From the IMG/VR virus record IMGVR_UViG_3300029119_000326: a DNA stretch of 64,000 nucleotides; one strand, 5' to 3'. Positions within the stretch are counted from its first letter, which is position 1; each line of letters opens with the position of its first letter. Of the stretch, positions 925-63,822 are shown in pieces. Source of the stretch: a virus. The position numbers and the translations under genes are program-made. The notes beneath the pieces are model-generated. The model made no database searches. It saw nothing but the letters and a program-made list of their open reading frames with translations, and had not been told where the DNA came from.

Positions 925-990
925 AAGAGAATTATATCTTATTGTATTATCAATTTGTGAGAGTTGTATGACAGAAAGAGGGTAGATATA

Positions 991-2254: not shown

Positions 2255-2262
2255 GGAAAACT

Positions 2263-6883: not shown

Positions 6884-6949
6884 TATCATGAAAAGGTTAA
6901 TAAGCCTTTTAGGTAGAATTAGCTACCAGAAGCTATCGCTAAACATTTA

Positions 6950-7054
6950 TGTTAGATAGTAATGAATTAACAAAGGTTAAATAGTTAGTCCGCTTGCAAC
7001 TATGCCAGAGCATGAGATAGAGCTATTTAACAATGTTTAACTTTGTGATTTGAG
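6950..7054 (+). ncRNA. tracrRNA-like module (anti-repeat + nexus-like TAGTCCG + hairpin)
   Basis: ttagatagt is complementary to repeat positions 9-17. ggttaaat is complementary to the repeat 5' GTTTTA. agtTAGTCCGcttgCAACTatg resembles the S. pyogenes tracrRNA nexus ggcTAGTCCGttatCAACTtg. Conserved at 61245-61347. Confidence 0.5.
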
Positions 7055-7153
7055 GTTTTAGAACTGAAATTACATGATACTAAAAGCGCAAAAGGATGTG
7101 GAACGAATGACCGGAATGGTTTTAGAACTGCATGAATTGCATGATACTAAAAG
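7055..7153 (+). CRISPR. mini-CRISPR array, type II-like: repeat (32 nt) - spacer (32 nt) - repeat (35 nt)
   Basis: gttttagaactgaaattacatgatactaaaag / spacer cgcaaaaggatgtggaacgaatgaccggaatg (50% GC vs ~30% locally) / gttttagaactgcatgaattgcatgatactaaaag. Confidence 0.55.
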
Positions 7154-7179
7154 CGAAAGACAAAATTAGTATCATAAAG

Positions 7180-7204
7180 TCCTAAAAGCTTTTAGGATTT
7201 TATG
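7180..7204 (+). terminator. terminator after the mini-array
   Basis: tcctaaaag/cttttagga perfect inverted repeat followed by ttttat. Confidence 0.5.
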
Positions 7205-7347: not shown

Positions 7348-7494
7348 TTAGTTGAAATTTGAGTACCTATATGGTATAATAGAAGTAGATAAAGGAAACT
7401 ATCGAATACGGTAGGCGGTTAGTCCTCTCAATTACAAAATTTGGGAGGATAATAAAATTCCTCCCTTAAATAAATATGAAGGGAGGATGATATT

Positions 7495-9280: not shown

Positions 9281-12200
9281 ATGAAAATTCGAAATAAAAC
9301 GATCGGGAAGCGCATATTAGCTGTGCTATTATCATTGCTTACAGTATTAAGCTGTATGACGATAGGATTCGCACCGGCATATGCACTTGATTCGACAGCT
9401 AAAGAATGGAACGGACATCACCGGTTTTCTGTTGATGGAAAAGATGCATATTGTATTAACTACGGTCAAGCTTCAAATGGCAAATTTGAAACAAATACTG
9501 CGGCAAGAAAATATTGGTCCAGTTTAGGTTCAACTAAACAAAACAATATTGAAAAAGTTCTTACATATGCAGGTGATAAAGGCTATTTGAATTCATCAAA
9601 AGATGAAACATATTTTGCCGTTCAAAGAGCAATTTGGAAACAAATAAACAACAAAGCTGAAAACGAACTGAAGAGCTGGTTTAAATCTCAAACCAAGAGT
9701 GTTTACGATGATATTATTGATAATTATAAAGGTAGTGCATATAAAACTACTAAACCAAAATTTAGTAACATAATACTTGAAGCACAATATGATAAAGACG
9801 GTAATGTTACATCATACAAAGGTTCAGGTACAGATAAAAATAGTGTATTGTCTAATTGGTCCATTACTGATAAAGCAGGACTTACTGTTAGCACTTCAGG
9901 CAGTAAACTCAATGTATCGTCAAGCAGTTATTTTGCTGGTAAGAAGACCATAAAACTTAAAAGTAAAAAGAAATTTTACACTATCGCTTCAGATCAAATA
10001 GGACATTTTGGTGACCAAGAAGTTATTGCTATTGGTACTTCAAAAGCTATTGAATCAAAGTTGTCAGCATCTATTGATAAAAATTATGGTTCAATTCAAA
10101 TTACAAAAATAGCTGAAACAGGCGAAGTAATGAGTGGTATTCAGTTTGATTTGTATGATTCGACAGGCAATACATATTATGCTTCTGATTGGACTGATGA
10201 AACAGGTGTGGCATCGTTTGATGATATTAATGCCGGTACATATGTAGTTAAGGAAGTATGTCCTGATGGTTATGTACCTTATGGTTCAATTTATCAGCAA
10301 ACGGTAACAGTAACAGCTAAGCAAACAACCAATGTAGCAAATCATCCAAGCGGTAAATGGGTAAATACCTTGCAGCGTGGTGATATTTATATCCATAAGA
10401 CGATTGAGGATACAAATACACCGTATCAAGCACAATTTACATTGTATGATTCAGACGGTAATTATGTATTGTCAGGAACAACAAATACTGCCGGTGATTT
10501 GTATTTTTGTAATGTACCGATTGGATATTATCAACTTAAAGAAACCAATACATTTAACGGTAATGTTATAGATTGGCAAAAGGTATATTATACTTACGAT
10601 TATAATTCCGGTCAGTATGTAGCAAATAAGGGTGATTCGATATATGTAGCATGGGATGGTCAAACAAGTTATCCATATGCAAATCAAGTATGTCATAACG
10701 GTTGGTTGAACGATAATGATGATGTAACAAAAGGTGGCGTAAATCTTTGCGATTGGTATAACCTTATTAACTATTCAGGTGAAAATACAATAGTTAATAG
10801 ATATAAGCGTGGCGATTTAAGATTGCATAAATTAGCAGAAGAGCCAGTAGAAGTATCGGAAAACGGTTATACATATAAGTACACATCAAACGATAATGTA
10901 GGAACATATAAATCATTATCCGGTGCAACATTTACTGCTACAAGCTACTCAAATCAAAATGTTTTGGGTAGAGATTTAACATTTACAACTACTACCGGTG
11001 CAGACGGATATGCATATTTCTGCGATATGCCAATTGGTGTATATACAGTACAAGAGGTTAATACAGACAGTAAGTATGTTCAACCGGCTTCACAAACATT
11101 TTATGTTGATTGGGATGGCAATACTTCCTATGATGTATCAGGTGCTAATTTTAGAAACACTGCAAACTACTTTACAGGTAATAATACAAACACATTAACC
11201 TTTATCAATTACTTGAAGTATTTTAGATTTGAGTTTTCAAAACTTGATGAAACTACAAACAGTTCAACTGCTCAAGGTGATGCTTCACTTGCAGGTGCTG
11301 TGTATGAATTGTATAAAGGTGATGAACTTGTAGGCACATATACGACAGATGCAAAAGGTAAATTTACCACAAAGTATCATGTATGCGGTTCAGATTATTA
11401 CCTTAAAGAAAAATCATCTTCATCCGGTTACTTTATCAACCCTGATAAAATAACCATTTCGGAAGATTGTACTAAATATACTGCACGATTAAATGATACA
11501 AAGTATTCACAAACCGAACTTGAAAAATACGGCAAAATCGAAATCATTAAGCATTACGATCCTGATGATGAAACACAAATTGAGCAACCTGAAGAAGGAG
11601 CTGAATTTCAAGTATATTTGAAATCTGCCGGCTCATATGATAATGCAAAAGATAATGAAAAGGATTATCTTGTAACGGATAAAGACGGTCATGCTGTATC
11701 TAAAAAATTGCCTTACGGTGATTATGTAATTCACCAAACAAAAAGCACTGAAGGCACGCTTTTTGTACCTGATAAAGTACAAGGTATACAAACAGGTTTA
11801 AACGGTGATAAATTTTATTCTGATGATTACCTTATTAAAAACAACGATGTATCAATTGAAGATACTGTAATTTCATATAAGTATTTGATGTTAGATACAC
11901 TCGATAAAGCGTATATCAAACTTGTAAAAGAAGACAGCGAAACAGGTAAAATAATTCCATATAACGAATTACAGGGTGCTGTGTTCCAAATTCTTGATAA
12001 GGATTTGAATGTTATTTCAATGACATATACATACCCAAAGAAAATAACTGTTAACTCTTTTACAATTAACGATGAAGGATATATTATCACTCCACAGAAG
12101 CTTAAATACGGCACATATTATCTTGTAGAAGTACAATCACCATACGGATATTATAATCCAAACGGTGAGCTTGTAAGCGTTGATAACGGTACATATAAAT

Positions 12201-24773: not shown

Positions 24774-25205
24774 GTGAAAAATACGAGCATAAGAATTGCA
24801 TTGTTGTTAATGTGTATTATTGTTATTTCTTCTTCAAGTGCTTATGCAGCGACATATAAAGTCGAAGAAGGAAAAGAAGAAACAATTACAGTTAATGTTG
24901 ATTATAACAAGACAACTGCAGAAAGCACTACGAAAAGTGAAACTCAATATACAGAAAATAATACCACTAATGTTGTAACTACTGAAATCGTTAGTACAAC
25001 AGAACCAAATATTGTGCAAACAACAAGTGAAACTATTGCCACAGAAACCACACCGAAGCCAACAAAAACCAAGGCAACAAAAAAACATAAAAAAGAAAAA
25101 AGTGTAAAAACTGGTTTCAACACTTTACCGTTATATTTTACAATAATAGGACTGGCAATATTATTGATTATCATGAAAAGAAAGAGGGTGCGAATAAATG
25201 AGTAA
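24774..25205 (+). CDS. small T-rich surface protein with a sortase-type sorting signal (SVKTG + TM + KRKR)
   Basis: Signal peptide. C-terminal SVKTGFNTLPLYFTIIGLAILLIIMKRKRVR. Confidence 0.5.
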   Translation: MKNTSIRIALLLMCIIVISSSSAYAATYKVEEGKEETITVNVDYNKTTAESTTKSETQYTENNTTNVVTTEIVSTTEPNIVQTTSETIATETTPKPTKTKATKKHKKEKSVKTGFNTLPLYFTIIGLAILLIIMKRKRVRINE

Positions 25206-28200
25206 AAATAAAAAAATAATTTCTGTTTTTTTAGCTATTATTACAATGCTTACTTGCTTTCCGATTTCGGCATTTGCTAATAATATAGACTGGGAATATT
25301 CTGTTAATGAAGACAATACAATCGAAATAACAGGATACAACGGAGATTTATCATCAACTCTTGAATTACCAAAAACAATTGATGATAAAACCGTTATAGG
25401 TACTTCTTCCGAAATTTTTGAAAACAAAAGCGTAGATAATGTAAAAACAATTATAATTCCATATACATATCAATTTATTTGGAATCTTGATTTGTTTTCT
25501 AATTTGAAAAAAATTGAAGCCCATTCGTTAACTATACAAAATATGTATTTGTTAAATGGAGGACAGGAAAACAAATACATTGAATTAAACAGTGAAAATA
25601 TAGAAAAATTTGAAAAATCACTTGCTGTATTGTCAAAATTAAACGAATCGTTATGTGAAAACAATAAAGAAATAAATAAAGAAAAAACAACAGATTGTAA
25701 GAAAGATGGTATAAACTACATTTGTAAAGTGTGTGGATACGAATGGAAAAAAGCTTGTCAAGAGCACCAATATGAGTATGTTAAAGAAAAGAGTACAAAA
25801 GATAATTGCTATTCTGAATGCATTGCTTGTGGCGAGCAGATAAAAAGTAATCATAATTACAAATCTGAAATAACAAAAGCACCAACTTGTACCGAAGAAG
25901 GAACAAAAACATATACTTGTACAAATTGTGGATATTCATATACAGAGAATATACCAAAAACAACTCATAATTATGTTCGCAAGACCTTGGTTGAAGCAAC
26001 TTGTGCACAACCGGGTACTGACGAATTGACTTGTAGCAAATGTGGATATAAAGAGACGGAAAAAACATATAAATCACATGAATATGATGATGGAGTTGTT
26101 GTTGACGAAGGCAATTGCGTTAATGTAAAAATTAAATATACCTGCAAATTTTGTGGAAACACATATGAAGAAACTGAAGATGTTCTTCATGATTGTATAA
26201 TAGAAAATGGCTATTTTCAATGTAAAAGATGTAATAAAAAAGTCAAACTTACTTTTAATTCAATCAATACAAAAAATTATACATACGATTTTGATGATGT
26301 TAATGATTTGGACTGGGATGGTGCATTGAATACATATGTTATAAATTGCAATGAAGATTCTCGGTATACATTTGATTTTTCAAAATTAAATTTCAATTCA
26401 GATCATGGTAGTGTAAGTTTAGTTAAAATAGATCCGGACTTTACCGATGATGAAATTATTTTTTATTCCCTACTTAAACAAGCTTATCCGCGATACCAAT
26501 TAGATAAATATGATACAGATGGTAGATGCCATCCTGTTGAAAATGCACCTAAACTTTCTTATGATTTCTTATCAATGTTTAGTTTATATGATTGGACTGC
26601 ATATGGATGGGATCCAGAATGGTCTGCTAATCTAGAAGATAAATTTGAATGGATTGAAAATTCGGAGCTGCAATTCAAAAATAGTCAAGTCTTTTTTGAT
26701 CTACAAAAAGATAGAAGTAATGGCAAAGCATATAATTATCTTGAAAAATATGGAAGTGAGTGCTTTTTGGGTGGTACTACTAAAGAAACACTTTTATTAA
26801 ATAAAGGTAAATATTTATTAGTTGTAAAAAACGCTTATTCTGATTCTTGCAAAGAACCTATGTTTACAGGAAAATTTGATATAAAAAAAGAATGCAATCA
26901 TGTTTATAACGAAACTATAACAAAAGCACCAACTTGTAATGAAAAAGGAACAAAAACATATACTTGCACAAAATGTGGATATTCATATACAGAGGATATA
27001 CCAAAAATAACACACAATTACAAAGCCAAAATAACAAAAGAGCCAACATGTACCGAAGAAGGAATAAAAACATATACTTGTAAATTATGTGGTGATTCTT
27101 ATACAGAAATCATTCCGGCAACCAGACACGAGTACAAAAAAATCAATATAGACGATAAAACATATAAAATTGAATGCTCAAAATGTGGTTTAAATCGTTT
27201 TTATAAAGAATTAGATGATTGGACTATTACATTTAGCGGTAATGATAATACTTGTACGCTGTATAAATATAATGGTTCAGAAACAATTTTGTCACTTCCG
27301 GAAAAAGTTGGAAAATATAAAGTTTTAGGTTTGGAAAAAAGTGCTTTTGAAAATGTTAAAATAGCTGACGATATAACAGAAGTAACTATTCCTTATACAT
27401 ATAAAAAGGTTGAAGGAATAGAAAATTTGTCTAATTTGCGACAATTGAATTATCATGAAATTTTATGGGATTATTTTAGTAATGAACTAATAAGCTTTTT
27501 TGACCAAAATAATATATACTGTCGTTCTCTTTGCGAAGGACATTGGTATACGGATCAAGATTGTACAAAACAAGACATAGATGTTTATTGCAAAATATGT
27601 GGATATACGGAAAAAAGAGACTCTAATATGACCTATTTTGAGGATGGTCATCAATATGTGATAAGTAATGTTAACGGTGATATAATTACCTATACTTGTA
27701 CACAATGCCCGAATTCATATACAATGATTTGCAAACATAATAATGCCAAATACGACAGAAAAGTTGAAGCAAATTGCCAGCATGGCTCATACGATATATA
27801 TGTTTGTCTTGACTGTAACAACGAAATTAAGCGTCATGAACAATCAACTCTTGGTGAACACTCTTATGAAATAAAAAAAGGAAAAGCCATATGTAAAGTT
27901 TGTCAAAACGAAATCACTTACAAATCATATAATATAGATGAGTTAAATAAACAATACACTTTCTATCAAAAGGATTTCTATGATGATCACTTATCTTCTA
28001 CCGAAAAGAAAAATCGTTATAATTGTATAAAGCTGACAATTGATAAAAATAATACTCCGGTTTATTTCTATCAAACAAAAAGTCAAGGAAAATTTAATAT
28101 AAGGACATTCGAAGGGTTAAGTCAAGATGAAATTGATTATTATTTAATTTCATCTTCGCAGTATGGTTTAAATTATAATAACTTTGAAAAATACAGCGAA

Positions 28201-31113
28201 TTTGAAAATGATATTAACTCGTATTTGAATAATGAAAAAAAGCAAGAAATAATTCCGGAAGAACCAAGTATATTTAAAAATAATGAGCCGGTTTATTTAG
28301 ATAAAGGTATTTATTATCTGTTTTTAGATTTTGGTCCGGGAAGTTTGGCAATCTCTAATTCACCAATATACAAATGTGACACAAAATTGCATTTTCAAAA
28401 TCCGGAAGATTATAATATCATGTATAATCAAATTGCTGAAAATTTGCCGAACAGTTGCACAAATGAAGAATATAAAGAAGCCTTTAAAGATTTTTCAAGC
28501 TACAACAAAACACATAATTTCGTTTTTTATAAGAATGAAAAACTTGCACACGATATAACAACTTATCAGTTTAGCGGCAGCGATAACGAAAAAATCAAAA
28601 ATACTTATGAAGATGCAGAATGTATTTCAATGATTTGTGAAAATTGTGGTGAAATTGTTTATAGCTATGCTAAATTTGAGGTTGAAGCTGATCAAGATAA
28701 GGATCCTGATAATAAACATCCTGAAAAAATAGATGATAGTGACCACAATTTTGTTTACACTTATGATGAGCCAAATTGTATTGAAGCTGGATATAAAAAG
28801 TGGACTTGCAAGAACAGTGTGGTACAAGGATATGTTTTAACCGGAGACACAGAACATCATTCTTATATTGAAGATTACATACAAAATAAGAATGATATAC
28901 CTTCTGATTTTGTTAATGCAACATTTGACGAATTTAAGAATTATTATAATCAAAATTTCGAAAGAAAATTTGAGGAGAAATATCCAGATGTAAATTCATT
29001 TTTAGATTTATATAAAAATAAAAATTCTAATAACTTTTTTGAATATGAATCTAATTATGATGCATTGATGAATTTTATAAAAAGTCATAGTTTTTACGAA
29101 ACTGATTATTGTGATAAGGAAATAAAAGAAGTAGTACCTGCTCTTTCAACTAACCATCAACATAGTTTTAAGGCTACATACACTGCTAACTTTGATGGCA
29201 CACATAACAAAAAAGCCGTTTGCACTAATAAGGGTTGTTATAGTTATATGAAAGAAAAAGAACTTTACAACCTTACTGATTCTGAGGCTTCTGAGTTAAA
29301 TTTAAACTATTTTAGAGATAATAATGGAATATGGTATAAATTCGATGAAAACGGAAATTCGACAGTTGTAAACAGGAACAGTGAGAAAATTGTCCTTAAT
29401 ACTTATGGCAAAAAAGTAAAAACAACAACAAAAATAAATGAAACTGAAAATTGCATTTATGACGACAATTGCACCTGTATCTATTGTGGAGCTGTAAATC
29501 ATAAAAAAATAAACAGTGAAATATCAAATTATATTCCATCAACAGCAGATACAAACGGTTCATATATTAAAACAGATTATTGTGAAAAATGTAACGCGAT
29601 TGTTGATGTAAATAAAATAATTTTACCAAAAGGAGAAATCACTGTTAATGTAGATGACAATATTACTCTAAAAGTAAACAAAAAGGGAACATATTCAGCA
29701 TCATATAACATCAAATTTAACGGTATTGACGACTATTCTAATATAACATTCAAACCAAAAGATACACTTGTTCTTGTTAATGATAAAACAAATGAATCTA
29801 AAATAGCGAAAGTATCACAAAAACAAATTGAATTTTCTAAAGATAAAGGTCTTACAACAACAGGTACGGTTACTGTTGAAAGTTTAACAGAAGGTACTTG
29901 GACCGGATATATTACATTTGACTACTACTTTTGGAAAAATGTAGATGTAACAGATTATTTCATTTGGACTCAAGATACAGAAAATTTGTATGTTTTAAAT
30001 AATGATGGTAAAACAGAAGAATACTGGAATGACGAATTGATTAAAATGATACAGGATAATCAATCGAACAATGTATGGGTGGATGAAAACAAAAATATCA
30101 GAGAAAAGTTGCCTTCGGATTTATATTATAAATATTTGAATTCACGAGTATTTGATAGTTCTTCGTTTGAAGATGATAATTTACAACAAAAAAGTAAAAA
30201 TGCGTATAATCATCATTGTTCTAATAATTTAGCAATTAAAAAAGAAAATACATTAACCGGATATATTCCATATGAAAGAACGGCAATAAACGGATTGATG
30301 GATTTGGGTGCTGAATGGATTAAAGCTAACAATGGCAAGCTTGTTATACCATCGTGCGCAACTGCAATAGCAGATGCCAAAGTTATCAATTCGACTACTA
30401 CATCAGATGAATATAACACAACAGATCCGGTAAGAGATGTATATTCAATTGTAAAATATGGAAAAGGAGCATTTCAACCGTATTTAATTTCCTATGATAA
30501 AAGCGGTAAGAAATATTATGTTGAGGATGATAATGTAACTTTGATTGATCCTTATTCAAGTCGAGGTAGAGAAATTAAACATTATAATGATAATATTTAT
30601 AGTGTTACAGAAGTAATTATTCCAAATAGTTGTAAATCAATTGGTATAAAATCATTTTTCTACAATAGTAGTATTAAAAATATTACTCTCAAAGGATCCA
30701 CATTTGTTAAAAATTATGCATTTTCAGGAATTGATTCTGCATATGCTCTTGGAAATTCATATGAAAATCTTTATGAAGTAAATAATAAGAAAAACGATAA
30801 ACTTGATATATATATCCCTGACGATACAATCTTTAGTTCACTTGTATTTGGATGTGCAAATGCATTAGAATCACTTGAATTGTATGGCTCAATTGCAAAA
30901 GTGCTACTCGTAGATAACAAGTATCCTGATAAGTTAGTTGGATATGATTATCATGAAACTTCTGCGGATATAATTATTCATTATAATTCATTAGAAGAAT
31001 TAAATAGAATAAAAAACGCTTCGCCTATTTACAGATTTTTTGATAATTCTTATAGTGAGAATGAATATTACAAAACTAATAATATGAATTTTATAAAAAA
31101 TAGTGGTACATAA
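25198..31113 (+). CDS. giant secreted protein (1971 aa) with BspA-type leucine-rich repeats at both ends and about 10 four-Cys repeats
   Basis: Signal peptide. Repeats ITKAPTCTEEGTKTYTCTNCGYSYTENIPKTTHNY. LRR-like ...IIPNSCKSIGIKSFFYNSSIKNITLKG. Confidence 0.7.
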   Translation: MSKNKKIISVFLAIITMLTCFPISAFANNIDWEYSVNEDNTIEITGYNGDLSSTLELPKTIDDKTVIGTSSEIFENKSVDNVKTIIIPYTYQFIWNLDLFSNLKKIEAHSLTIQNMYLLNGGQENKYIELNSENIEKFEKSLAVLSKLNESLCENNKEINKEKTTDCKKDGINYICKVCGYEWKKACQEHQYEYVKEKSTKDNCYSECIACGEQIKSNHNYKSEITKAPTCTEEGTKTYTCTNCGYSYTENIPKTTHNYVRKTLVEATCAQPGTDELTCSKCGYKETEKTYKSHEYDDGVVVDEGNCVNVKIKYTCKFCGNTYEETEDVLHDCIIENGYFQCKRCNKKVKLTFNSINTKNYTYDFDDVNDLDWDGALNTYVINCNEDSRYTFDFSKLNFNSDHGSVSLVKIDPDFTDDEIIFYSLLKQAYPRYQLDKYDTDGRCHPVENAPKLSYDFLSMFSLYDWTAYGWDPEWSANLEDKFEWIENSELQFKNSQVFFDLQKDRSNGKAYNYLEKYGSECFLGGTTKETLLLNKGKYLLVVKNAYSDSCKEPMFTGKFDIKKECNHVYNETITKAPTCNEKGTKTYTCTKCGYSYTEDIPKITHNYKAKITKEPTCTEEGIKTYTCKLCGDSYTEIIPATRHEYKKINIDDKTYKIECSKCGLNRFYKELDDWTITFSGNDNTCTLYKYNGSETILSLPEKVGKYKVLGLEKSAFENVKIADDITEVTIPYTYKKVEGIENLSNLRQLNYHEILWDYFSNELISFFDQNNIYCRSLCEGHWYTDQDCTKQDIDVYCKICGYTEKRDSNMTYFEDGHQYVISNVNGDIITYTCTQCPNSYTMICKHNNAKYDRKVEANCQHGSYDIYVCLDCNNEIKRHEQSTLGEHSYEIKKGKAICKVCQNEITYKSYNIDELNKQYTFYQKDFYDDHLSSTEKKNRYNCIKLTIDKNNTPVYFYQTKSQGKFNIRTFEGLSQDEIDYYLISSSQYGLNYNNFEKYSEFENDINSYLNNEKKQEIIPEEPSIFKNNEPVYLDKGIYYLFLDFGPGSLAISNSPIYKCDTKLHFQNPEDYNIMYNQIAENLPNSCTNEEYKEAFKDFSSYNKTHNFVFYKNEKLAHDITTYQFSGSDNEKIKNTYEDAECISMICENCGEIVYSYAKFEVEADQDKDPDNKHPEKIDDSDHNFVYTYDEPNCIEAGYKKWTCKNSVVQGYVLTGDTEHHSYIEDYIQNKNDIPSDFVNATFDEFKNYYNQNFERKFEEKYPDVNSFLDLYKNKNSNNFFEYESNYDALMNFIKSHSFYETDYCDKEIKEVVPALSTNHQHSFKATYTANFDGTHNKKAVCTNKGCYSYMKEKELYNLTDSEASELNLNYFRDNNGIWYKFDENGNSTVVNRNSEKIVLNTYGKKVKTTTKINETENCIYDDNCTCIYCGAVNHKKINSEISNYIPSTADTNGSYIKTDYCEKCNAIVDVNKIILPKGEITVNVDDNITLKVNKKGTYSASYNIKFNGIDDYSNITFKPKDTLVLVNDKTNESKIAKVSQKQIEFSKDKGLTTTGTVTVESLTEGTWTGYITFDYYFWKNVDVTDYFIWTQDTENLYVLNNDGKTEEYWNDELIKMIQDNQSNNVWVDENKNIREKLPSDLYYKYLNSRVFDSSSFEDDNLQQKSKNAYNHHCSNNLAIKKENTLTGYIPYERTAINGLMDLGAEWIKANNGKLVIPSCATAIADAKVINSTTTSDEYNTTDPVRDVYSIVKYGKGAFQPYLISYDKSGKKYYVEDDNVTLIDPYSSRGREIKHYNDNIYSVTEVIIPNSCKSIGIKSFFYNSSIKNITLKGSTFVKNYAFSGIDSAYALGNSYENLYEVNNKKNDKLDIYIPDDTIFSSLVFGCANALESLELYGSIAKVLLVDNKYPDKLVGYDYHETSADIIIHYNSLEELNRIKNASPIYRFFDNSYSENEYYKTNNMNFIKNSGT

Positions 31114-43635: not shown

Positions 43636-45072
43636 TTGAAAAGTGAAGTGAAATACATGAAATATATAACTGAAATGTTTTTATATATAAATTATTTTAA
43701 GAAAAAATTTAATATCAAAACACAAACCTTTAATCCGTATTATACGGCAATAGAAGGAGTAAAAAAATATTGTGAATACAATGATGTAAATTTAGACAAA
43801 AGAAACAAAATTGAAGATTACATTATTTCTTTGAATGTTCCAAACATTAAAATCAATATATTCAATCTTTTGTATCCAAATGTTAAATGTAATGTTACTG
43901 ATGAAAGAGTTCAAAAATGTGATTTATCTATGCTGTCGGATTCACTTTTATTGAAATATCTTTTTATTATTTTTTCTACAATAAATTTTGTTTATAAAGA
44001 TAATCTAATAGGTCTTAAATACAATGCTGTTATATGGAAGACAGGATTTCATAATCTTGCAAAACTCTGCAGAGGAAAAGTAATAGATAGTAAAACAATG
44101 ACAATAGTTTCATATCCTTTTGATAAATTTTTTAATGTAAACGAAGTATCGGAAACAAAAGAGGATATTATTAAAGAACTTGTGGGTGAAAGCACTTATG
44201 TATATACAACCGACAAAAAAGATGGTTCTACTATTATAGTTTCACTTTATAAGAACAAACCTCTCATCACTACAAATGGTTCTTTTGAAAATGACCAGAT
44301 TGTATTGGCAGAACAACTTCTAAAAAAGAAATATCCAAAATTTTTAAAGGAAATAAAGGAAGGATATACTTATATCTTTGAACTTATACATCCTGAAAAC
44401 AGAATAGCAATAAATTACGGTGATGAAAAATCACTTTATTTACTTGCCGTAAGAGACTTAAGAACAGAAAAACTTCTTTCACTTGATGAAACTCATATCA
44501 TTGCAAATGATTTTGGCTTTCCTGTTCCTCAAACATTTTCTTTTAAAAATCTTTCTGATATTCTTTATCTTGCTCATACAGAAAGAAATACTAACCGTGA
44601 AGGATGGGTACTTCGTATAGGAAAAAAAGATGGTGGAGAATTTATGCTCAAAATAAAATTAGATGAATACTTTGAACTTCACTCAGTTTTCAGTAAAATT
44701 ACTCTTACATTTGTATATCGGCATTTGCTTGCAAATGACCTTGATGATATTATCATCATTGTTTCCGAAAATCAACAAAAAGAAATAAAGGAATATATTA
44801 AAGAAATTGAAATTATCAGAGAAAAAATAAAAGAAAATTCTGAAGATTTAACCGAAGATATTTGCAAAAGATTTGCCACTTCTTCGATAGCTGCAAAAAC
44901 CGACAGAGAACTTACTGTCAAAATTATAAGTGAAATTATAAAAGAAAAAAGTATGTACGGAGATTTTGCTATTGAATATTTGAAATACGGAGACAGCGTT
45001 GAGGATAAAATACGAAAAATTCCTGCAAAAAAATTTAATAAATTTGTTGAGATTTTGAACGAAAAGATTTGA
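43636..45072 (+). CDS. ATP-dependent RNA ligase (T4 Rnl1-like nucleotidyltransferase)
   Basis: Motif I TDKKDGSTIIV (KxDG). EGWVLR (motif IV). MLKIKLDEY (motif V, K-x-K). Confidence 0.6.
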   Translation: MKSEVKYMKYITEMFLYINYFKKKFNIKTQTFNPYYTAIEGVKKYCEYNDVNLDKRNKIEDYIISLNVPNIKINIFNLLYPNVKCNVTDERVQKCDLSMLSDSLLLKYLFIIFSTINFVYKDNLIGLKYNAVIWKTGFHNLAKLCRGKVIDSKTMTIVSYPFDKFFNVNEVSETKEDIIKELVGESTYVYTTDKKDGSTIIVSLYKNKPLITTNGSFENDQIVLAEQLLKKKYPKFLKEIKEGYTYIFELIHPENRIAINYGDEKSLYLLAVRDLRTEKLLSLDETHIIANDFGFPVPQTFSFKNLSDILYLAHTERNTNREGWVLRIGKKDGGEFMLKIKLDEYFELHSVFSKITLTFVYRHLLANDLDDIIIIVSENQQKEIKEYIKEIEIIREKIKENSEDLTEDICKRFATSSIAAKTDRELTVKIISEIIKEKSMYGDFAIEYLKYGDSVEDKIRKIPAKKFNKFVEILNEKI

Positions 45073-50601: not shown

Positions 50602-51162
50602 ATGTTAAATAAGAATTTTGTAGTAAAGGGTTTTGAGCTTATAGATGAAGAAAAAGAAATAATTTCATCAAAAGTAGACAAGCTTGATAAAAAAATAAAA
50701 ATCAATACAGATGTAACGATTAAAATCAGAACAGCGGCGAGTGGAGACTACAAGTCAACTGTTTCGTTTACATTACTTGGAAAATTTATTAAGGGTGAAG
50801 GTAAAAATAAAAAATCACCTATACCGGCAGTAAATGAAGCCATTGATGATGCAATTCGCAAATATAGAAAGCTTAAGGATAATCGTTTTGAAAAGCAAGG
50901 AAATAAAATTTCTAAACTTCTTGAACCTAAAGCTGTTCTAAAAAATGTCAATATGAAAGAATATGACAACTTTGGCTCAATGTCTGAAAAAATAACAAAG
51001 AAAAAATATATTGAATTAAGACCTCAAACTATTGACGAAGCCATTGACGAAATGCTGTTTCTCGGAGAAAAATTTTATATGTTTAAAAACCTTGATGGTG
51101 AAACTTGTACAATTTTCAAAAGAAACAATAATCAAGGATTCGGATTGTTAGTGTCGAAGTAA
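50602..51162 (+). CDS. hpf: ribosome hibernation promoting factor, long form (HPF/YvyD-like)
   Basis: N-terminal NFVVKGFELIDEEKEII... and C-terminal LRPQTIDEAIDEMLFLGEKFYMFKNLDGETCTIFKRNNNQGFGLLVSK match long-HPF domains. Confidence 0.75.
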   Translation: MLNKNFVVKGFELIDEEKEIISSKVDKLDKKIKINTDVTIKIRTAASGDYKSTVSFTLLGKFIKGEGKNKKSPIPAVNEAIDDAIRKYRKLKDNRFEKQGNKISKLLEPKAVLKNVNMKEYDNFGSMSEKITKKKYIELRPQTIDEAIDEMLFLGEKFYMFKNLDGETCTIFKRNNNQGFGLLVSK

Positions 51163-59015: not shown

Positions 59016-59885
59016 ATGAGTACAAAATCAATAAAAATAGTGACAATTTTAATTTCGATAGCACTAATTACCTGTGTAGCGTTTTTGTTAATATTTAAAA
59101 TAAATGTTAATAATTCGTATAAACAAACTAATCAAGTTATGCAGAGTGTATTGGTGAAAAATTCAAAAGATGAAAATGATGTCGATTGGGAAAAATTGAA
59201 AGCGAAAAATAAAGATGTTATTGGCTGGCTGTCGATAAACGACACAACAATAAATACGCCTATTGTTCAATCAACAGATAATTCATATTACTTAAAGAAA
59301 AATTTTAACAAAAAATATTCTTTTAACGGTAATCCATTTATTGATTACCGTAATGATATGAATATAGGTGATACTAATACTATTATATACGGTCATAATA
59401 TGAGAGATAGTCAATTATTTGGAGAATTACTTGACATATATAAAAACTCACAAACGGCAAGTAATTACAAAATAATAAAATTGAAAACACCTAAAAGTGT
59501 ACACAAATATGCAATAATTGGAGCTTTTTATACTAATTCAGAACCTAAAGATGATAATGGATATGTTTTTGAATACAATTCACCTAATTTAGACGAAGGC
59601 GATTATGCTGACTTTTTAGCACAACTTGAACAGAGATACATATTTACATCCGGTGTTGATGTGAATATGTCTGATAAACTTCTAACTCTTTCTACATGTG
59701 CTTATCAATTTAAAAATGAGAGATTTGTAGTTGTCGCAAGAGAACTTCGTAATGGTGAATCAGAAAATTCAATAAAATTCAATTTTGAAGATGTAAATAA
59801 TCCGAGGTATCCCGACAAATGGTATAAAGTAAACCACAAAAATAACATTTACAAAAATTTGCCTAAATGGTCATTAAGCGAGTAA
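59016..59885 (+). CDS. srtB: class B sortase
   Basis: N-terminal TM. DVIGWLSINDTTINTPIVQSTDNSYYL...TIIYGHN...LLTLSTCAYQF...RFVVVAREL (His-Cys-Arg triad). Confidence 0.8.
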   Translation: MSTKSIKIVTILISIALITCVAFLLIFKINVNNSYKQTNQVMQSVLVKNSKDENDVDWEKLKAKNKDVIGWLSINDTTINTPIVQSTDNSYYLKKNFNKKYSFNGNPFIDYRNDMNIGDTNTIIYGHNMRDSQLFGELLDIYKNSQTASNYKIIKLKTPKSVHKYAIIGAFYTNSEPKDDNGYVFEYNSPNLDEGDYADFLAQLEQRYIFTSGVDVNMSDKLLTLSTCAYQFKNERFVVVARELRNGESENSIKFNFEDVNNPRYPDKWYKVNHKNNIYKNLPKWSLSE

Positions 59886-59922
59886 TACATATTTTGAAAA
59901 AATATAGGAGGTGAAAAATACG

Positions 59923-60120
59923 ATGTTTAAAAAATTGATTAACGAAATCAAAAAACTTGAATCTTTAAAACAAGCTAAACTTGAACAAAAAGCTAAACTT
60001 GATGCAGAAATCAAAATTATTGAAGCTAAATTAAAGCCAAAATATGCAGCAAGAACCAAATATGAAGAAGCTGAAAAAATGGCTCAAGAAGCTTTAGATT
60101 TTGATACGAAGGAAGAATAA
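59923..60120 (+). CDS. small coiled-coil protein
   Basis: ATG after ataggaggtg. Confidence 0.35.
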   Translation: MFKKLINEIKKLESLKQAKLEQKAKLDAEIKIIEAKLKPKYAARTKYEEAEKMAQEALDFDTKEE

Positions 60121-60230
60121 TTTGGAATAATCGTTTGCAATATTCTCGTGAGTTTGGTTATGAGAGTACTTACTAATTACAGACAATTCTAAAAAATAAT
60201 TATGTAAAAACGCATTTTTTTTACTATATA

Positions 60231-60240
60231 ACCATGTAGC
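60231..60240 (+). promoter_or_regulatory. TTACTATATA promoter-like motif heading the ncRNA/tRNA region
   Basis: Motif copy. About 420 nt of structured non-coding sequence follows. Confidence 0.4.
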
Positions 60241-60352
60241 AATAAAAAGAAGTTGTTTGCTATATCATTTTATCTCTGCGGAGGTACAGTGATTTAAGTG
60301 ATCGTGTTAAGTTACTTGTGAGGTGCTTAACTTGGCATAAGATATTTTTTCG

Positions 60353-60385
60353 GTTTTAGCCTTGTGCATGAATGCACTAAATCAT
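60353..60385 (+). repeat. degenerate CRISPR-like repeat unit
   Basis: gttttagccttgtgcatgaatgcactaaatcat vs gttttagaactgcatgaattgcatgatactaaaag (7119). Confidence 0.3.
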
Positions 60386-60644
60386 AACCATACAAGTAAT
60401 AACAAAAAAGTTAGGACTTTTTGTATTGGAAGGGTTGCTGACCTTTCCGTAGTTTTTCTAATGATTTAAAGGAAGTTTAGCAAAAGTGTACATATTACTT
60501 TACTGAATTTAATCACCGTCATTAACACGCTGATAGACAGTATTTCTCCCACAATTCGGGAAGTAAAGAGATCTATTGGTTGAAAGTAAATGGATACGGC
60601 AGAACAGTGCACATCTGCCGTATCACGATTATTAAATGTGCAGA

Positions 60645-60650
60645 TATAAT
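60645..60650 (+). promoter_or_regulatory. -10 TATAAT just upstream of the solitary repeat unit
   Basis: Perfect TATAAT. Weak -35 (atcacg). Predicted TSS falls at the repeat's first nucleotides. Confidence 0.3.
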
Positions 60651-60657
60651 GTAAGAG

Positions 60658-60693
60658 GTTTTAGAGCAGTATAAAATTGCATGGTACTAAAAA
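60658..60693 (+). CRISPR. solitary type II-like CRISPR repeat unit (36 nt) abutting tRNA-Gln
   Basis: gttttagagcagtataaaattgcatggtactaaaaa, 31/36 identical to the 61348 repeat. Ends 2 nt before the tRNA 5' end. Confidence 0.5.
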
Positions 60694-60695
60694 AT

Positions 60696-60770
60696 AGGAA
60701 TATAGCCAAACGGTAAGGCAACGGACTTTGACTCCGTTATTTGTAGGTTCGATCCCTGCTATTCCTGCCA
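60696..60770 (+). tRNA. tRNA-Gln (UUG)
   Basis: Acceptor AGGAATA/TATTCCT + G + CCA. D-arm GCC-AAACGGTAA-GGC like E. coli tRNA-Gln. Anticodon stem ACGGA/TCCGT, loop CTTTGAC. Confidence 0.8.
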
Positions 60771-60883
60771 TCAAAAAATCAACACAGACAATTCTCCTCA
60801 TTCAGTATAATATAAAAAAACGGAATTCTACATAACAAGGCAAAAGTTTTGTTGATTTCTTTTGCTTTGTTGTAAAAAATAAT

Positions 60884-60958
60884 GCAGATATGATGTAATC
60901 GGTAGCATCTTACTCTTCCAAAGTAAGTGAGCGAGTTCAAACCTCGTTATCTGCTCCA
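60884..60958 (+). tRNA. tRNA-Gly (UCC), divergent
   Basis: Acceptor GCAGATA/TATCTGC + T + CCA. Anticodon stem TTACT/AGTAA, loop CTTCCAA. T-arm GCGAG-TTCAAAC-CTCGT. Confidence 0.6.
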
Positions 60959-60964
60959 AAATAT

Positions 60965-61040
60965 TCTCCATTAGTTCAGAAGGTAGAACGGTAGACTGTT
61001 AATCTATATGTCATTGGTTCGAATCCAATATGGAGAGCCA
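60965..61040 (+). tRNA. tRNA-Asn (GUU)
   Basis: Acceptor TCTCCAT/ATGGAGA + G + CCA. D-stem GTTC/GAAC. Anticodon loop CTGTTAA. Confidence 0.75.
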
Positions 61041-61043
61041 AAC

Positions 61044-61119
61044 GGACCGTTAGCTTAGCAGGTAAAGCAACCGGCTCATAACCGGTAAACCATGGGTTCA
61101 AATCCTATACGGTCCACCA
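61044..61119 (+). tRNA. tRNA-Met (CAU) elongator, or tRNA-Ile2 if lysidinylated
   Basis: Acceptor GGACCGT/ACGGTCC + A + CCA. Anticodon stem ACCGG/CCGGT, loop CTCATAA. Confidence 0.75.
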
Positions 61120-61122
61120 TAT

Positions 61123-61198
61123 GTGTCATTAGCTCAGTAGGTAGAGCAACAGACTTTTAATCTGTGGGTCAAGGGTTCAATTCCCTTATGGCACACCA
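61123..61198 (+). tRNA. tRNA-Lys (UUU)
   Basis: Acceptor GTGTCAT/ATGGCAC + A + CCA. Anticodon stem CAGAC/GTCTG-like, loop CTTTTAA. T-loop GGTTCAATTCC. Confidence 0.75.
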
Positions 61199-61244
61199 CT
61201 TAATAGGGCTGAATTAGCAGCCTGATACTATCGTTAGACATTTT

Positions 61245-61347
61245 TGTTTGATAGTGATGAATAAGCAAAGGTTGAATAGTTAGTTCGTTTGCGGCTATGT
61301 CAGGATGTAATAGAGCTATTTAACAATGCTTAACTTTGTAATTTGAG
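61245..61347 (+). ncRNA. tracrRNA-like module, second copy (about 85% identical to 6950-7054)
   Basis: tttgatagtgatgaataagcaaaggttgaatagttagttcgtttgcggctat... Paired substitutions keep the atagtt...ggctat stem. Confidence 0.45.
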
Positions 61348-61440
61348 GTTTTAGAGCTATCTAAAATTACATGGTACTAAAAGAGAAATATATCTTTTTG
61401 TTTTAGAACTGTATGAAATATGCGTGAACTACCATACACC
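61348..61440 (+). CRISPR. type II-like CRISPR repeat (36 nt) + 16-nt gap + degenerate repeat
   Basis: gttttagagctatctaaaattacatggtactaaaag is 25/36 identical to the S. pyogenes type II-A repeat (first 13 nt identical). Second unit gttttagaactgtatgaaatat... Confidence 0.5.
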
Positions 61441-61458
61441 ATAAAGGTATGTGTTTTT
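61433..61458 (+). terminator. terminator-like hairpin + T-run
   Basis: catac...gtatg stem followed by tgttttt. Confidence 0.4.
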
Positions 61459-61536
61459 ATTGAAAATATTTTATAAAAAAAACGAGGGTTGTCTGTTACC
61501 GGATAGCCCTTTTAAACTAATTGAAAGGAGATAATT

Positions 61537-63822
61537 ATGTCAAAAATACTTGTAATTACTGAAAAATTTAGTCAAGCTAAAGCTTTAAGGGCTGGGTTAA
61601 GACAAAACATAGAAGCAAAAACATACAGTAATTCGTATAACAAGTCTAAAAATCCAAATTTGTATTACGAAGGTGATTCGACAATTATTGTTCCTGCACA
61701 TGGTCATTTATTTGAACTATATGATATTCCTGATTATCTTGAAGGAACAATTCAAAAAAATGAAAATGGAAAAACTAATTGGAGAGAATTTAGTGATAAA
61801 ATACCTTATATACCGGAAACATTTAAGTACAAACTTAAAAGCGGTTGGGAAAAAGGTCAATTTGAGTTAATTAAAAAATTGATTAACAGAGATGATGTCG
61901 AAAAAATATATAATTTTGGTGATCCAGATGCGGAAGGTGAACTTCTCATAAGAGAAATTTTAATACACGCTAACAATACTAAACCTGTCGAAAGAATTGA
62001 AACCAAATCACTTGTGCCATCTGAAATAGCAAACGAATATTATCATCCATATAATTCAAATAATTATACATATTTATATTTTGAAGCATTAGCACGACAA
62101 CAGACAGATTGGCTTACAGGCATTAACTTTACTGTTATGTTAACTTTGAAATCGGGTGTATTCTTTCCGGTGGGTCGTGTGCTTGTACCTATTGTTAGAT
62201 ATGTGTATAACAAAGTGAACGAGCATGAAAATTTTGTTCCTGAAATATCATATGGTATCAATGTGAATTTAAAAAGGGATAAAAAGAAATATATAATAAG
62301 TTCATCACAACCTGAAATATCATTTGCAAAAGATGAAAAAATCTTATGCGATAAACTCAAAAATGAACTTCAAAATGGTATTACAGTTGTTACAAAAGTT
62401 GAAAAGAAAAAGAAAAATTTTTCTCCTAAAAAATTATATTCAACTTCAAAAATTCTTGGCGATATGAGTTCAAAATACGGTTTGTCGATGGATATGACAA
62501 CTAAAGCACTTCAAATCTTATATGAAGATGCAAGAATAATGTATCCACGAACAGACTGTGAATATTTGCAGACTTGTGAAATTGACAACACAAGAAAAAC
62601 AATAGAGGGGCTTATAAGCGCAGGATACCCTTTAAAATTTCATACTAAGAAAAGTGTTTTTGACGATAAAAAGTGCGGAGAAAAAGGCGAGGGAGGACAC
62701 ACAGCGATCATTATCACTAATAAGTTCTTTAGTGACAGCGAATTTGAAGCTTTACAACCATATGTACAAGCGGTATATCTTGCGATATTTAATCGTACTA
62801 TATCTAATTTCTGTGATCCACCTGATGTTGATGAAACAACAGTAACGCTAAAAAATGGTGATTATACTTTTAAAATTAAAGGCAATGTTGTTAATTCACA
62901 AGGCTTTTTTGAATTTGAGCCAAGAGCATTATCAGATGAATTACCATATTTTGCCGAGGGCGAAGTAATTAAGGGTGCTGAATTTGAAACAGTTCAAAGA
63001 AAGACCAAAGCACCGCCTATGCCTACAAATAAAAATCTTACCAAATATCTTGAAAATCCTAATGACAATTATAATGCTGATTTATCACCGATTTCTGATA
63101 CTGAAGAATTAAATGGAATTGATGAAGAACATTATTATGAAAAAATAAAAAACGGTGCAACAATAGGTACTCCTTCAACTATCGGACCTACTGTAACAAA
63201 GGCGATAAGATATGGATATATTACTGAAACAAAAGGCACTTTGAATATTACCAAAAAAGGTAAGGCTTTGATTGAAACATTAGACAGACTCGATTTACAT
63301 AATCTCGATGCTAATCGTACAGTTGAATTAAATAAAACAATTAAGCAAATCGGCAAAAAGGTTTATACGCTTGAACAAAATAAACAAGCAATAAAAAATG
63401 AACTTTGGGAAGCATCAAAAGTAATGCGTGCAAAAAACATTGTTGTTTCTGTTGATGATTTAAGAGAACCTACTGAAACAGTTGGCAAATGTCCTTACTG
63501 CGGTTCTCCTGTATATGTCGGTAAAAATTCATATTATTGTGGAAACAAGGAATGTAAATTTTATTTATATAAGGAAGATAGCTTTTTTAAAAATGTGTTA
63601 GGCAATAAAACAATTACAAAAACCCAAGCAAAAGGATTTCTTTCATCTAATAGACAAGCTAAAGTTACATCCATAAAAAGCAAAAAGAAATTTGATGAAA
63701 ATGGAAAGCCAAAAGTATATGATGCAATAATCACTGTCGATTTTGAAGGCGGCAAAACAAAATTTTCATTTGGCGAATTTGCTGAAAAGAAAAAAATCAA
63801 AAAAGGAGGCAGTAAAAAATGA
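61537..63822 (+). CDS. topB: type IA DNA topoisomerase (TopB/topoisomerase III-like) with a C-terminal zinc ribbon
   Basis: TOPRIM ILVITEKFSQAKAL...FGDPDAEGELLIREIL. Later ...CPYCGSPVYVGKNSYYCGNKEC. Confidence 0.75.
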   Translation: MSKILVITEKFSQAKALRAGLRQNIEAKTYSNSYNKSKNPNLYYEGDSTIIVPAHGHLFELYDIPDYLEGTIQKNENGKTNWREFSDKIPYIPETFKYKLKSGWEKGQFELIKKLINRDDVEKIYNFGDPDAEGELLIREILIHANNTKPVERIETKSLVPSEIANEYYHPYNSNNYTYLYFEALARQQTDWLTGINFTVMLTLKSGVFFPVGRVLVPIVRYVYNKVNEHENFVPEISYGINVNLKRDKKKYIISSSQPEISFAKDEKILCDKLKNELQNGITVVTKVEKKKKNFSPKKLYSTSKILGDMSSKYGLSMDMTTKALQILYEDARIMYPRTDCEYLQTCEIDNTRKTIEGLISAGYPLKFHTKKSVFDDKKCGEKGEGGHTAIIITNKFFSDSEFEALQPYVQAVYLAIFNRTISNFCDPPDVDETTVTLKNGDYTFKIKGNVVNSQGFFEFEPRALSDELPYFAEGEVIKGAEFETVQRKTKAPPMPTNKNLTKYLENPNDNYNADLSPISDTEELNGIDEEHYYEKIKNGATIGTPSTIGPTVTKAIRYGYITETKGTLNITKKGKALIETLDRLDLHNLDANRTVELNKTIKQIGKKVYTLEQNKQAIKNELWEASKVMRAKNIVVSVDDLREPTETVGKCPYCGSPVYVGKNSYYCGNKECKFYLYKEDSFFKNVLGNKTITKTQAKGFLSSNRQAKVTSIKSKKKFDENGKPKVYDAIITVDFEGGKTKFSFGEFAEKKKIKKGGSKK

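Follow-up and report, generated by a model that had tools for sequence, protein, structure and literature searches.

Five tRNA genes set between predicted orphan type II-A CRISPR mini-arrays on a conjugative-type mobile element

Why should a mobile genetic element (MGE) carry five tightly spaced tRNA genes between repeats that resemble those of clustered regularly interspaced short palindromic repeat (CRISPR) arrays? The question is raised by one locus of IMG/VR virus record IMGVR_UViG_3300029119_000326, of which a stretch of 64,000 nucleotides (nt), called here the window, was analysed. A first-pass annotation had proposed that the tRNAs belong to a translation-protection toolkit directed against host defences that cleave tRNAs, or alternatively that they supply codons used heavily by the element. 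The present analysis shows that the repeats on both sides of the cluster belong to orphan type II-A CRISPR mini-arrays, which have leaders of their own and are fused to the tRNA genes. The tRNA cluster alone is an ordinary MGE tRNA set, and the array-tRNA fusion is the more interesting feature. The features of the tRNA locus, and of a second leader/array locus in the window, are as follows. Related loci were fetched through the topoisomerase III gene, L numbers denote these and the other sequences compared, and the percent identities given for relatives are those of the topoisomerase.

60658-60693, plus strand: R1, a 36-nt type II-A-like repeat (nhmmer E 8e-6) that ends 2 nt before tRNA-Gln
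60696-60770, plus strand: tRNA-Gln (UUG), ARAGORN, Rfam 66.6 bits, CCA encoded
60771-60883, plus strand: 113-nt spacer between tRNA-Gln and tRNA-Gly, 100% identical between alleles
60884-60958, plus strand: tRNA-Gly (UCC), ARAGORN, Rfam 56.7 bits, CCA encoded
60965-61040, plus strand: tRNA-Asn (GUU), ARAGORN, Rfam 70 bits, CCA encoded
61044-61119, plus strand: non-initiator tRNA with a CAU anticodon, ARAGORN, Rfam 71.9 bits, CCA encoded
61123-61198, plus strand: tRNA-Lys (UUU), ARAGORN, Rfam 74.9 bits, CCA encoded
61199-61347, plus strand: leader 2, structured, ~150 nt (149 nt), starting directly after the CCA of tRNA-Lys and ending GTAATTTGAG
61348-61383, plus strand: R2, first repeat of array 2, GTTTTAGAGCTATCTAAAATTACATGGTACTAAAAG (nhmmer E 7e-7)
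61384-61399, plus strand: short 16-nt spacer of array 2, AGAAATATATCTTTTT, from the sequence; an unrelated 14-nt sequence in L025
61400-61435, plus strand: R3, degenerate terminal repeat whose 5' 20 nt match R1 at 17/20 and whose 3' half is diverged (alignment with L025 and L032)
61433-61458, plus strand: weak terminator-like hairpin and U-run, seen by eye and not called by a strict scan, closing the non-coding unit before the topoisomerase gene
61537-63822, plus strand: topoisomerase III gene, the flanking marker
6897-7054, plus strand: leader 3, a third copy of the same leader, ending GTGATTTGAG, with no tRNA upstream
7055-7153, plus strand: array 3, composed of a repeat at 7055-7086 (32 nt, with a 4-nt deletion), a spacer at 7087-7118 and a repeat at 7119-7153
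7177-7203, plus strand: intrinsic-terminator-like hairpin TCCTAAAAG/CTTTTAGGA followed by TTTT, 3' of array 3, seen by eye

The first-pass annotation described the tRNAs as flanked by CRISPR-like repeats. These repeats are real, but they were under-read, being parts of orphan type II-A mini-arrays. The pattern GTTTTAGAGC..CATGGTACTAAAA occurs twice, at 60658-60692 and 61348-61382, where 0 occurrences are expected in 100 shuffles, and the window holds three leader/array units, array 1 being reduced here to R1. We regard R1 as the terminal repeat of a truncated array 1 because its homologue in L025 is preceded by a leader, a repeat and a 30-nt spacer; the window allele has lost or lacks that leader, the first repeat and the spacer. 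As in type II-A arrays, the repeats are 36 nt long and of the form GTTTTAGAGC…AAAA(C), and the spacers measure 32 nt in array 3 (7087-7118, CGCAAAAGGATGTGGAACGAATGACCGGAATG) and 30 nt in array 1 of L025. Array 2 departs from the norm of about 30 nt, its spacer having 16 nt only. In the variant L033 the first repeat of array 3 has its full 36 nt, and the same spacer is found with 1 single-nucleotide polymorphism.

The leaders end in (G)TAATTTGAG or GTGATTTGAG, directly before GTTTT. The junction ATTTGAG/GTTT is that of Group 1, the ancestral type II-A leader-repeat junction, and it was demonstrated that the leader's last 10 nt together with the first repeat suffice for spacer acquisition (PMC5382924). 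Since the leaders carry this motif, the arrays may capture spacers in trans through the Cas1-Cas2-Csn2-Cas9 proteins of a host. Five aligned leader copies (four full ones and a truncated one from L007) share a three-hairpin fold, in which 7 pairs show compensatory changes. A segment at 61307-61342 (R2-prime) that had been considered a degenerate repeat was ruled out, as it is a conserved part of the leader, and a proposed likeness of the leader to the nexus of a trans-activating CRISPR RNA (tracrRNA) had no Rfam support in 59800-61700.

No Cas domain was found by Pfam in the 46 open reading frames (ORFs) scanned, other, mostly small, ORFs having been left out. There was no Rfam match to a tracrRNA in the tRNA locus (59800-61700), and no anti-repeat on the element rose above shuffle level. 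The arrays are therefore orphan, and would have to depend on the Cas9 and tracrRNA of a host.

The junctions between tRNAs and arrays are precise to the base, with 2 nt from R1 to tRNA-Gln and 0 nt from the CCA of tRNA-Lys to leader 2. In L025, a 99% variant of the element on a 112-kb contig, the order is leader 1, repeat, 30-nt spacer, repeat, 2 nt, the tRNAs for Gln, Gly and Asn, the CAU tRNA, tRNA-Lys, 0 nt and leader 2, after which come a repeat, 14 nt, a degenerate repeat, the terminator and the topoisomerase gene. The same element on a 166-kb IMG/VR contig (L032, topoisomerase 99% identical) has no tRNAs and a single hybrid leader, of which the first ~85 nt correspond to leader 1 of L025, including its upstream flank, and the remainder to leader 2 of the window, and which runs into a window-type array 2. 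Thus the tRNAs and array 1 form a cassette between two direct leader copies of ~150 bp, and this cassette appears to have been lost or gained by recombination between them. The region is mosaic among alleles. Between the window and L025 the tRNAs are 97-100% identical, with 3 substitutions, all of them in a D-loop or at position 26, and the topoisomerase is 99.2% identical, leader 2 93% and R2 83%, and the short spacer is replaced. From this comparison it seems that the array part turns over and the tRNAs are held constant.

Two further observations concern the alleles. In a 97% variant from an unclassified metagenome-assembled genome (L007:1-270) the leader is preceded by another tRNA-like 3' half. 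The one hybrid unit of this variant lacks the GTTTTAGAGC start and all of R3 and the terminator, so that array 2 is decayed there, and the contig stops short of the remainder of the locus. The non-coding stretch of 540 nt that lies 5' of R1 (60121-60657) is near-invariant among alleles over its first ~300 nt. The next ~230 nt are diverged and rich in hairpins (for example a perfect 12-bp stem at 60592-60625), and L025 and L032 have instead a longer, homologous but divergent version of this segment. The stretch has no match in Rfam, and could be a small RNA, an origin of transfer or a single-strand promoter.

The five tRNA genes of the first-pass annotation were recovered by ARAGORN at exactly the positions it had given. 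The program found five tRNAs in the locus and no others, all on the plus strand and with intergenic gaps of 113, 6, 3 and 3 nt in gene order. The Rfam tRNA model scored them at 56.7-74.9 bits against a gathering score of 29 (E 1e-9 to 1e-14). Their anticodon loops, which in gene order read CUUUGAC, CUUCCAA, CUGUUAA, CUCAUAA and CUUUUAA, are 7 nt long with U33 and a purine at 37, and none of the genes resembles a pseudogene. Minimum free energy (MFE) folding drew a cloverleaf for four of the five; the anticodon arm of tRNA-Asn was mis-drawn, by MFE only. Judged by cloverleaf, loop and CCA, all five are canonical, intact bacterial tRNA genes. DNA relatives of the locus sought in phage and plasmid collections, near or distant, amounted to generic tRNA similarity only. 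Covariation from metagenomic copies of the window allele was uninformative, the copies all being about 100% identical.

The CAU tRNA had been left as Met or Ile, and although the anticodon stands, sequence features favour Ile2 over Met. The tRNA has G1-C72, shows no three consecutive G-C pairs in its anticodon stem, and carries C4-G69 and C5-G68, the TilS identity pairs. Its sole PGAP-annotated matches are weak ones to 'tRNA-Ile' (72% identity, E 0.2), and among phages the annotation of its matches is mixed between Met and Ile. It is thus probably a tRNA-Ile2, which with lysidine would read AUA, rather than an elongator tRNA-Met. Such an identity fits the tRNA-Ile(UAU) found on the relative L021.

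Three small observations touch the tRNA-Gly region. The spacer at 60771-60883 may hold an internal promoter, TTGATT-N17-AAAAAT, just 5' of tRNA-Gly, which was seen by eye and lies below the scan threshold. A supposed decayed repeat at 60846-60881 (Rx) was unsupported, promoter-like AT-rich sequence being likelier. The 21 nt directly 5' of R1 (60639-60659, TGCAGATATAATGTAAGAGGT) are 86% identical to 60883-60903, which is the junction and the first 20 nt of tRNA-Gly, and this likeness may be a recombination scar, a spacer-like relic or chance.

The proposal that the tRNAs match the AT-rich codon usage of the element was borne out on the element's own genes. Among its codons AAA ranks #1, AAT #2, ATA #9 and CAA #14, and the five tRNAs together can read 26.6% of them. 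When sets of five tRNAs were taken at random from a typical repertoire of 32 species, no more than 2.4% reached this coverage. The signal comes mainly from Lys and Asn. The tRNAs have a GC content of 39-50%, compared with 53-61% for the host-type tRNAs of L035, and their stems are fully compensated. In tRNA-Gln the anticodon arm is identical to those of the L022 and L035 tRNA-Gln, and the acceptor and T stems show compensatory changes. This AT shift with compensated stems is a sign that the tRNAs have long resided on AT-rich elements and have been under purifying selection there. A study of plasmids found that the tRNAs they encode follow the codon usage of the plasmid, Asn and Ile being among the preferred types (bioRxiv 10.64898/2026.09.01.748738).

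Is the arrangement particular to this element? In L019, a relative of 53% identity on a 232-kb contig, five copies of a leader unrelated to that of the window precede one solitary repeat and four mini-arrays with two repeat types, GTTATATAACTACTACATTTGTAGGGGTAGTAGAAC, not assigned to a CRISPR type, and the type II-like GGTTTGGACCTCTGTTAAATAACACAGTAGTAAAAC, at the following positions of that contig.

5975-6110: L019 leader/array unit
7756-7955: L019 leader/array unit
12085-12416: L019 leader/array unit
12613-12871: L019 leader/array unit
13270-13594: L019 leader/array unit

A tRNA-Leu(UAA) and a CAU tRNA lie between these arrays, and at the CCA end of each a leader copy begins, so that two of the five copies directly adjoin a tRNA. 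The module of tRNA, leader and array therefore recurs in this relative with an unrelated leader and other tRNAs. The L019 leader has a shared 5' part, which meets each of the repeat types through a junction peculiar to that type, and so behaves as a modular MGE expression element. Across the relatives, tRNAs for A/U codons stand beside the same topoisomerase, the species found being Gln-UUG, Leu-UAA, CAU and Ile-UAU. L022 (57%) has a tRNA-Gln(UUG), with a mini-array elsewhere on the contig, and L021 (58%) has a tRNA-Ile(UAU) and a tRNA with a UUA anticodon, without an array. The UUA tRNA, which ARAGORN calls 'tRNA-Stop' and which resembles an ochre suppressor, stands beside the tRNA-Ile(UAU) 5' of the topoisomerase gene (L021:1730-1807 and 1867-1943). 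In L037 (64%; L037:1-436, 5' of the topoisomerase gene) there is a 63-nt tRNA-like element whose anticodon arm is truncated to 3 bp and 4 nt (Rfam tRNA 44 bits), together with two acceptor/T-arm minihelices, each directly after a conserved 21-nt unit, GAAGTTTTTGGATACAGCAAT; to judge from their predicted structures, these tRNA-shaped RNAs would be unable to decode. Relatives at 38-42% topoisomerase identity had no arrays within ±9 kb and one tRNA-Ser, and the tRNA-array coupling therefore seems limited to a closer clade.

L035 and L036 (46%) represent a small element with the topoisomerase and a tyrosine integrase, inserted at tRNA-Lys. The host-type, GC-richer operon concerned, Gly-Arg-His-Gln-Lys (L035:639-1262 and 5040-5114), has its tRNA-Lys duplicated as an attachment (att) site, and insertion at such an operon is a plausible route of tRNA capture by these elements. 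The repeat family extends further. A BLAST search with the downstream unit matched unannotated stretches of pHTbeta, a conjugative plasmid of Enterococcus faecium, and of Streptococcus satellite prophages. Both pHTbeta (L027, NC_007594 43.5-44.2 kb, with about 30 related plasmids) and Javan415 (L026, 1210-1460) carry mini-arrays with 36-nt repeats of the same sub-family and unique 30-nt spacers, each after a duplicated leader, and a profile built from these repeat units found further copies. Apart from these, a phage-like contig with YopX-like genes has a two-repeat mini-array (L023:2699-2800, plus strand) and, ~2.5 kb from it on the opposite strand, a solitary unit (L023:191-225, minus strand) that as RNA is ~80% complementary to the array's repeat and may be a phage-borne anti-repeat or tracrRNA-like gene.

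The tRNAs had been placed on a mobile element in the first-pass annotation, and both the gene content and the presence or absence of the tRNAs among alleles agree with it. The window, with 29-30% GC and coding almost wholly on the plus strand, encodes a VirD4/TraG coupling protein of a type IV secretion system, a 1955-amino-acid (aa) SpaA/thioester adhesin, a sortase and topoisomerase III (Pfam), as well as YopX, GIY-YIG, flotillin and signal peptidase proteins. A RecD2-like helicase, ArdC and further genes follow just past the window end, ArdC lying ~5 kb downstream of the tRNA locus. By its gene content the window is part of a Gram-positive-type conjugative element. Many metagenome assemblies contain the element, and as its contigs reach ~1-1.5 Mb it is probably either integrated or a section of some large replicon. 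Clustered at the left end of the window (244-3418) are genes for a uracil-DNA glycosylase-family protein, a protein with a TIR domain and a non-specific (NS) endonuclease, cargo that could act in defence or counter-defence. Of the element's uncharacterised proteins the largest (25198-31113, 1971 aa) had no Pfam match at E<=1e-3. Two further genes, which had been singled out in connection with the toolkit, were confirmed:

43636-45072, plus strand: RNA ligase of the T4 Rnl1/gp63 type, by Pfam, PDB 2C5U (E 1e-13) and PHROG 562 (E 3e-49)
50602-51162, plus strand: ribosome hibernation-promoting factor (HPF) of the long type, by PF02482 and PF16321

In the explanation that we favour, the five tRNAs would be functional, long-resident MGE genes that top up the decoders of AAA/AAG, AAU/AAC, CAA, GGA and probably AUA, and they would form a gain/loss cassette inside a non-coding RNA locus of orphan type II-A mini-arrays. 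The whole tRNA-array stretch might be one plus-strand transcription unit, from which RNase P at the tRNA 5' ends and the 3' maturation enzymes at the CCA ends would separate the tRNAs from the CRISPR RNAs (crRNAs). In favour of such a unit, no GC-rich terminators were found inside L025 1250-2520 or L019 11950-13700, and the terminator-like hairpins come after arrays 2 and 3. The mini-array RNAs would then load onto the Cas9:tracrRNA of the host, with the effect either of targeting rival elements or of weakening the immunity of the host, and the tRNAs would improve translation of the element after transfer. Such use of host Cas9 would go with host type II-A repeats of the GTTTTAGA[AG]C..CATGGTACTAAAAC type. 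Taken as a whole, tRNAs for A-rich codons coupled to orphan mini-arrays that use host Cas9, this explanation appears to us evenly poised between being right and being wrong.

A number of results weigh against it. The window and the related loci up to L031 contained no spacer targets beyond chance matches of 13-14 nt, and twelve spacers of 23-32 nt (the 16-nt and 14-nt spacers not included) had no target in phage and plasmid collections. No cognate host array was found: the exact repeat pattern had no match in GTDB representative genomes, and a looser pattern retrieved one ordinary Streptococcus array and one phage-like contig from JGI metagenomes and nothing from viral contigs. L032, which has no tRNAs, keeps array 2, so that neither part depends on the other. 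Leader 3 of the window, leader 1 of L025 and three of the five L019 leaders have no tRNA upstream, and therefore the leader does not need one. Promoter and terminator scans were not above chance. Given chance-level promoter calls and leaders without tRNAs, co-transcription is plausible but not established. On the side of codon supply, Gly-UCC (1.5% of codons) and Gln-UUG (2.8%) are not in high demand and rank mid to low, decoders for the heavily used Glu, Asp and Tyr are missing from the set, and the benefit would shrink if the host were equally AT-rich. A separate observation concerns the region of array 3, where the best promoter match (7352-7380, TTGAAA-17-TATAAT with an upstream TG, 11/12) is followed by hairpins and a tiny ORF (downstream to 7560) and then by a transglutaminase/fn3 gene.

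How far might the role of the tRNAs go beyond decoding? It is tentatively proposed, with the balance leaning against it, that the family runs 'tRNA-punctuated' CRISPR RNA operons. Here tRNAs, or in some relatives decoding-dead minihelices, would be joined to modular leaders and to orphan mini-arrays that belong to several CRISPR types. The tRNA promoter and processing apparatus of the host (RNase P, 3' trimming), which is universal, would express and set free RNAs acting as guides or decoys, and through these the Cas9 of a recipient would be hijacked or silenced right after transfer; extra decoders for the A-rich genes of the element would come with the same transcript. That the tRNA structures serve mainly as promoter or processing modules (through RNase P, RNase Z and exonucleases) for the leader and crRNAs, with decoding secondary, seems to us unlikely. 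In its favour, base-precise junctions occur in two lineages with unrelated leaders, the repeat 2 nt before a tRNA and the leader at a CCA end; at the same locus L037 has its non-decoding element and two minihelices after 21-nt units; promoter-like hexamers in L019 end 6 and 11 nt 5' of the tRNAs that precede leaders; and engineered tRNA-driven CRISPR arrays work (PMC9120480). Against this, the five tRNAs retain perfect anticodon loops, CCA and identity elements for which a processing signal has no need, several leader-array units have no tRNA, L032 retains array 2 without any, and the promoter calls stand at chance level. Maturation of type II crRNAs requires RNase III and tracrRNA, not RNase P, which also counts against tRNA punctuation. 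At the other extreme the tRNAs would be functionless passengers, taken from a host operon by imprecise excision or by recombination at a tRNA att site, and their adjacency to the arrays would mark a recombination hot spot. The element of L035 and L036 does sit at the tRNA-Lys of an operon three of whose species are also found in the window, and the cassette comes and goes among near-identical elements in a mosaic region. This account is nonetheless highly improbable, as the tRNAs are strongly AT-shifted with all stems kept by compensatory changes, are far better conserved than the neighbouring leader and repeats and include none that looks like a pseudogene, and tRNA carriage recurs in several diverged relatives.

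The counter-defence proposal of the first-pass annotation holds that spare or insensitive Lys(UUU), Gln(UUG) and Asn(GUU) tRNAs oppose PrrC, RloC, PARIS or colicin-E5-type nucleases, with Rnl1 repairing cleaved tRNAs and HPF protecting ribosomes. Of the five tRNAs two, Lys-UUU and Asn-GUU, are nuclease targets documented in the literature, and in T4-like phages tRNA-Lys(UUU) goes together with repair by Rnl1 (PMC10264068; PMC11464382). Gln-UUG is known as a target of eukaryotic toxins only, and for Gly-UCC and the CAU tRNA no anticodon nuclease is known to us. As in T4, where Rnl1 and Pnkp carry out repair against PrrC, a true T4 Rnl1/gp63 homologue and a tRNA-Lys(UUU) lie on the same MGE, here together with an HPF. 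Counter-defence tRNAs would also suit an anti-defence locus with CRISPR-mimicking RNAs and with ArdC a few kb downstream. Unlike in T4, however, no Pnkp-like end-healing enzyme was found, neither the ligase nor the proteins encoded beside it showing a kinase or phosphatase domain, and the ligase lies 16 kb and the HPF gene 10 kb from the tRNAs. Resistant phage tRNAs are mutated in the loop (PMC10264068), but here all five anticodon loops have the canonical form, and the anticodon arm of tRNA-Gln is that of the host-type L035 tRNA-Gln. Relatives carry Leu-UAA, Ile-UAU and Ser-GCU instead. The toolkit thus receives no specific support from the locus, and we consider it decidedly unlikely.

What, then, would the favoured coupling of decoding tRNAs and mini-arrays mean? 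MGE tRNAs and MGE mini-arrays are each known and have hitherto been treated as unrelated cargo. We know of no prior description of a natural tRNA cassette wedged base-to-base between Cas-less type II-A mini-arrays, and to our knowledge the coupling is new, the literature retrieved linking CRISPR arrays to tRNAs in synthetic tRNA-guide RNA (gRNA) arrays only. That the base-precise fusion recurs in diverged elements with unrelated leaders suggests that the non-coding 'entry' RNAs of conjugative elements share a logic of expression or processing. If this is true, tRNA-gRNA arrays would have a precedent in nature. Plasmids and integrative and conjugative elements would have a new means of using CRISPR-hijacking or anti-CRISPR RNAs when they enter a new host, and the retention of tRNA genes by MGEs would have a new explanation. 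The analysis also brings out a family of orphan type II-A-like arrays, taking in this element, pHTbeta-type Enterococcus plasmids and Streptococcus satellites, with leaders that carry the acquisition motif.

Orphan mini-arrays on viruses and plasmids were previously described as exploiting host Cas proteins (PMC11656645; bioRxiv 10.1101/2021.06.04.447074, also PMC9071438). Like them, the arrays of the window have one or two spacers, are without cas genes and reside on an MGE. Known mini-arrays have repeats identical to those of the host and spacers against related MGEs, whereas here neither a host array nor a target was matched; moreover, one spacer has only 14-16 nt, and tRNA genes are interleaved. 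A second group of known systems comprises Racr (PMC10651486) and the viral scaRNAs and vsgRNAs (bioRxiv 10.64898/2026.06.01.729453, 10.64898/2026.06.03.729762), which are likewise MGE repeat-derived RNAs that need host Cas9:tracrRNA. The short guide (16 nt in the window, 14 nt in L025), followed by a repeat and a terminator, recalls the viral scaRNA, which binds without cutting, and R1, effectively solitary in the window allele, recalls the solitary repeat of Racr. The present locus differs from both in having no tracrRNA-like tail and no anti-CRISPR (acr) or anti-CRISPR-associated (aca) gene recognised by Pfam among its neighbours, no dedicated Acr search having been made. Neither the Racr paper (PMC10651486) nor the scaRNA papers (bioRxiv 10.64898/2026.06.01.729453, 10.64898/2026.06.03.729762) mention tRNAs.

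The arrangement of the parts is closest to that of engineered polycistronic tRNA-gRNA or 'drive-and-process' arrays (PMC9120480), in which tRNAs are also set directly beside guide units so that tRNA-processing enzymes can cut there. Those arrays are synthetic and oriented towards eukaryotes; the present one is natural and bacterial, and its processing is putative. As for the tRNAs themselves, plasmid tRNA clusters (bioRxiv 10.64898/2026.09.01.748738) are similar in consisting of redundant, ordinary tRNA species on an MGE, biased to the codons that the MGE uses, and the study that described them mentions no CRISPR link. The cluster of the window differs from them in that it is fused base-to-base to mini-arrays and leaders, in what appears to be a recombination cassette bounded by the leader copies.

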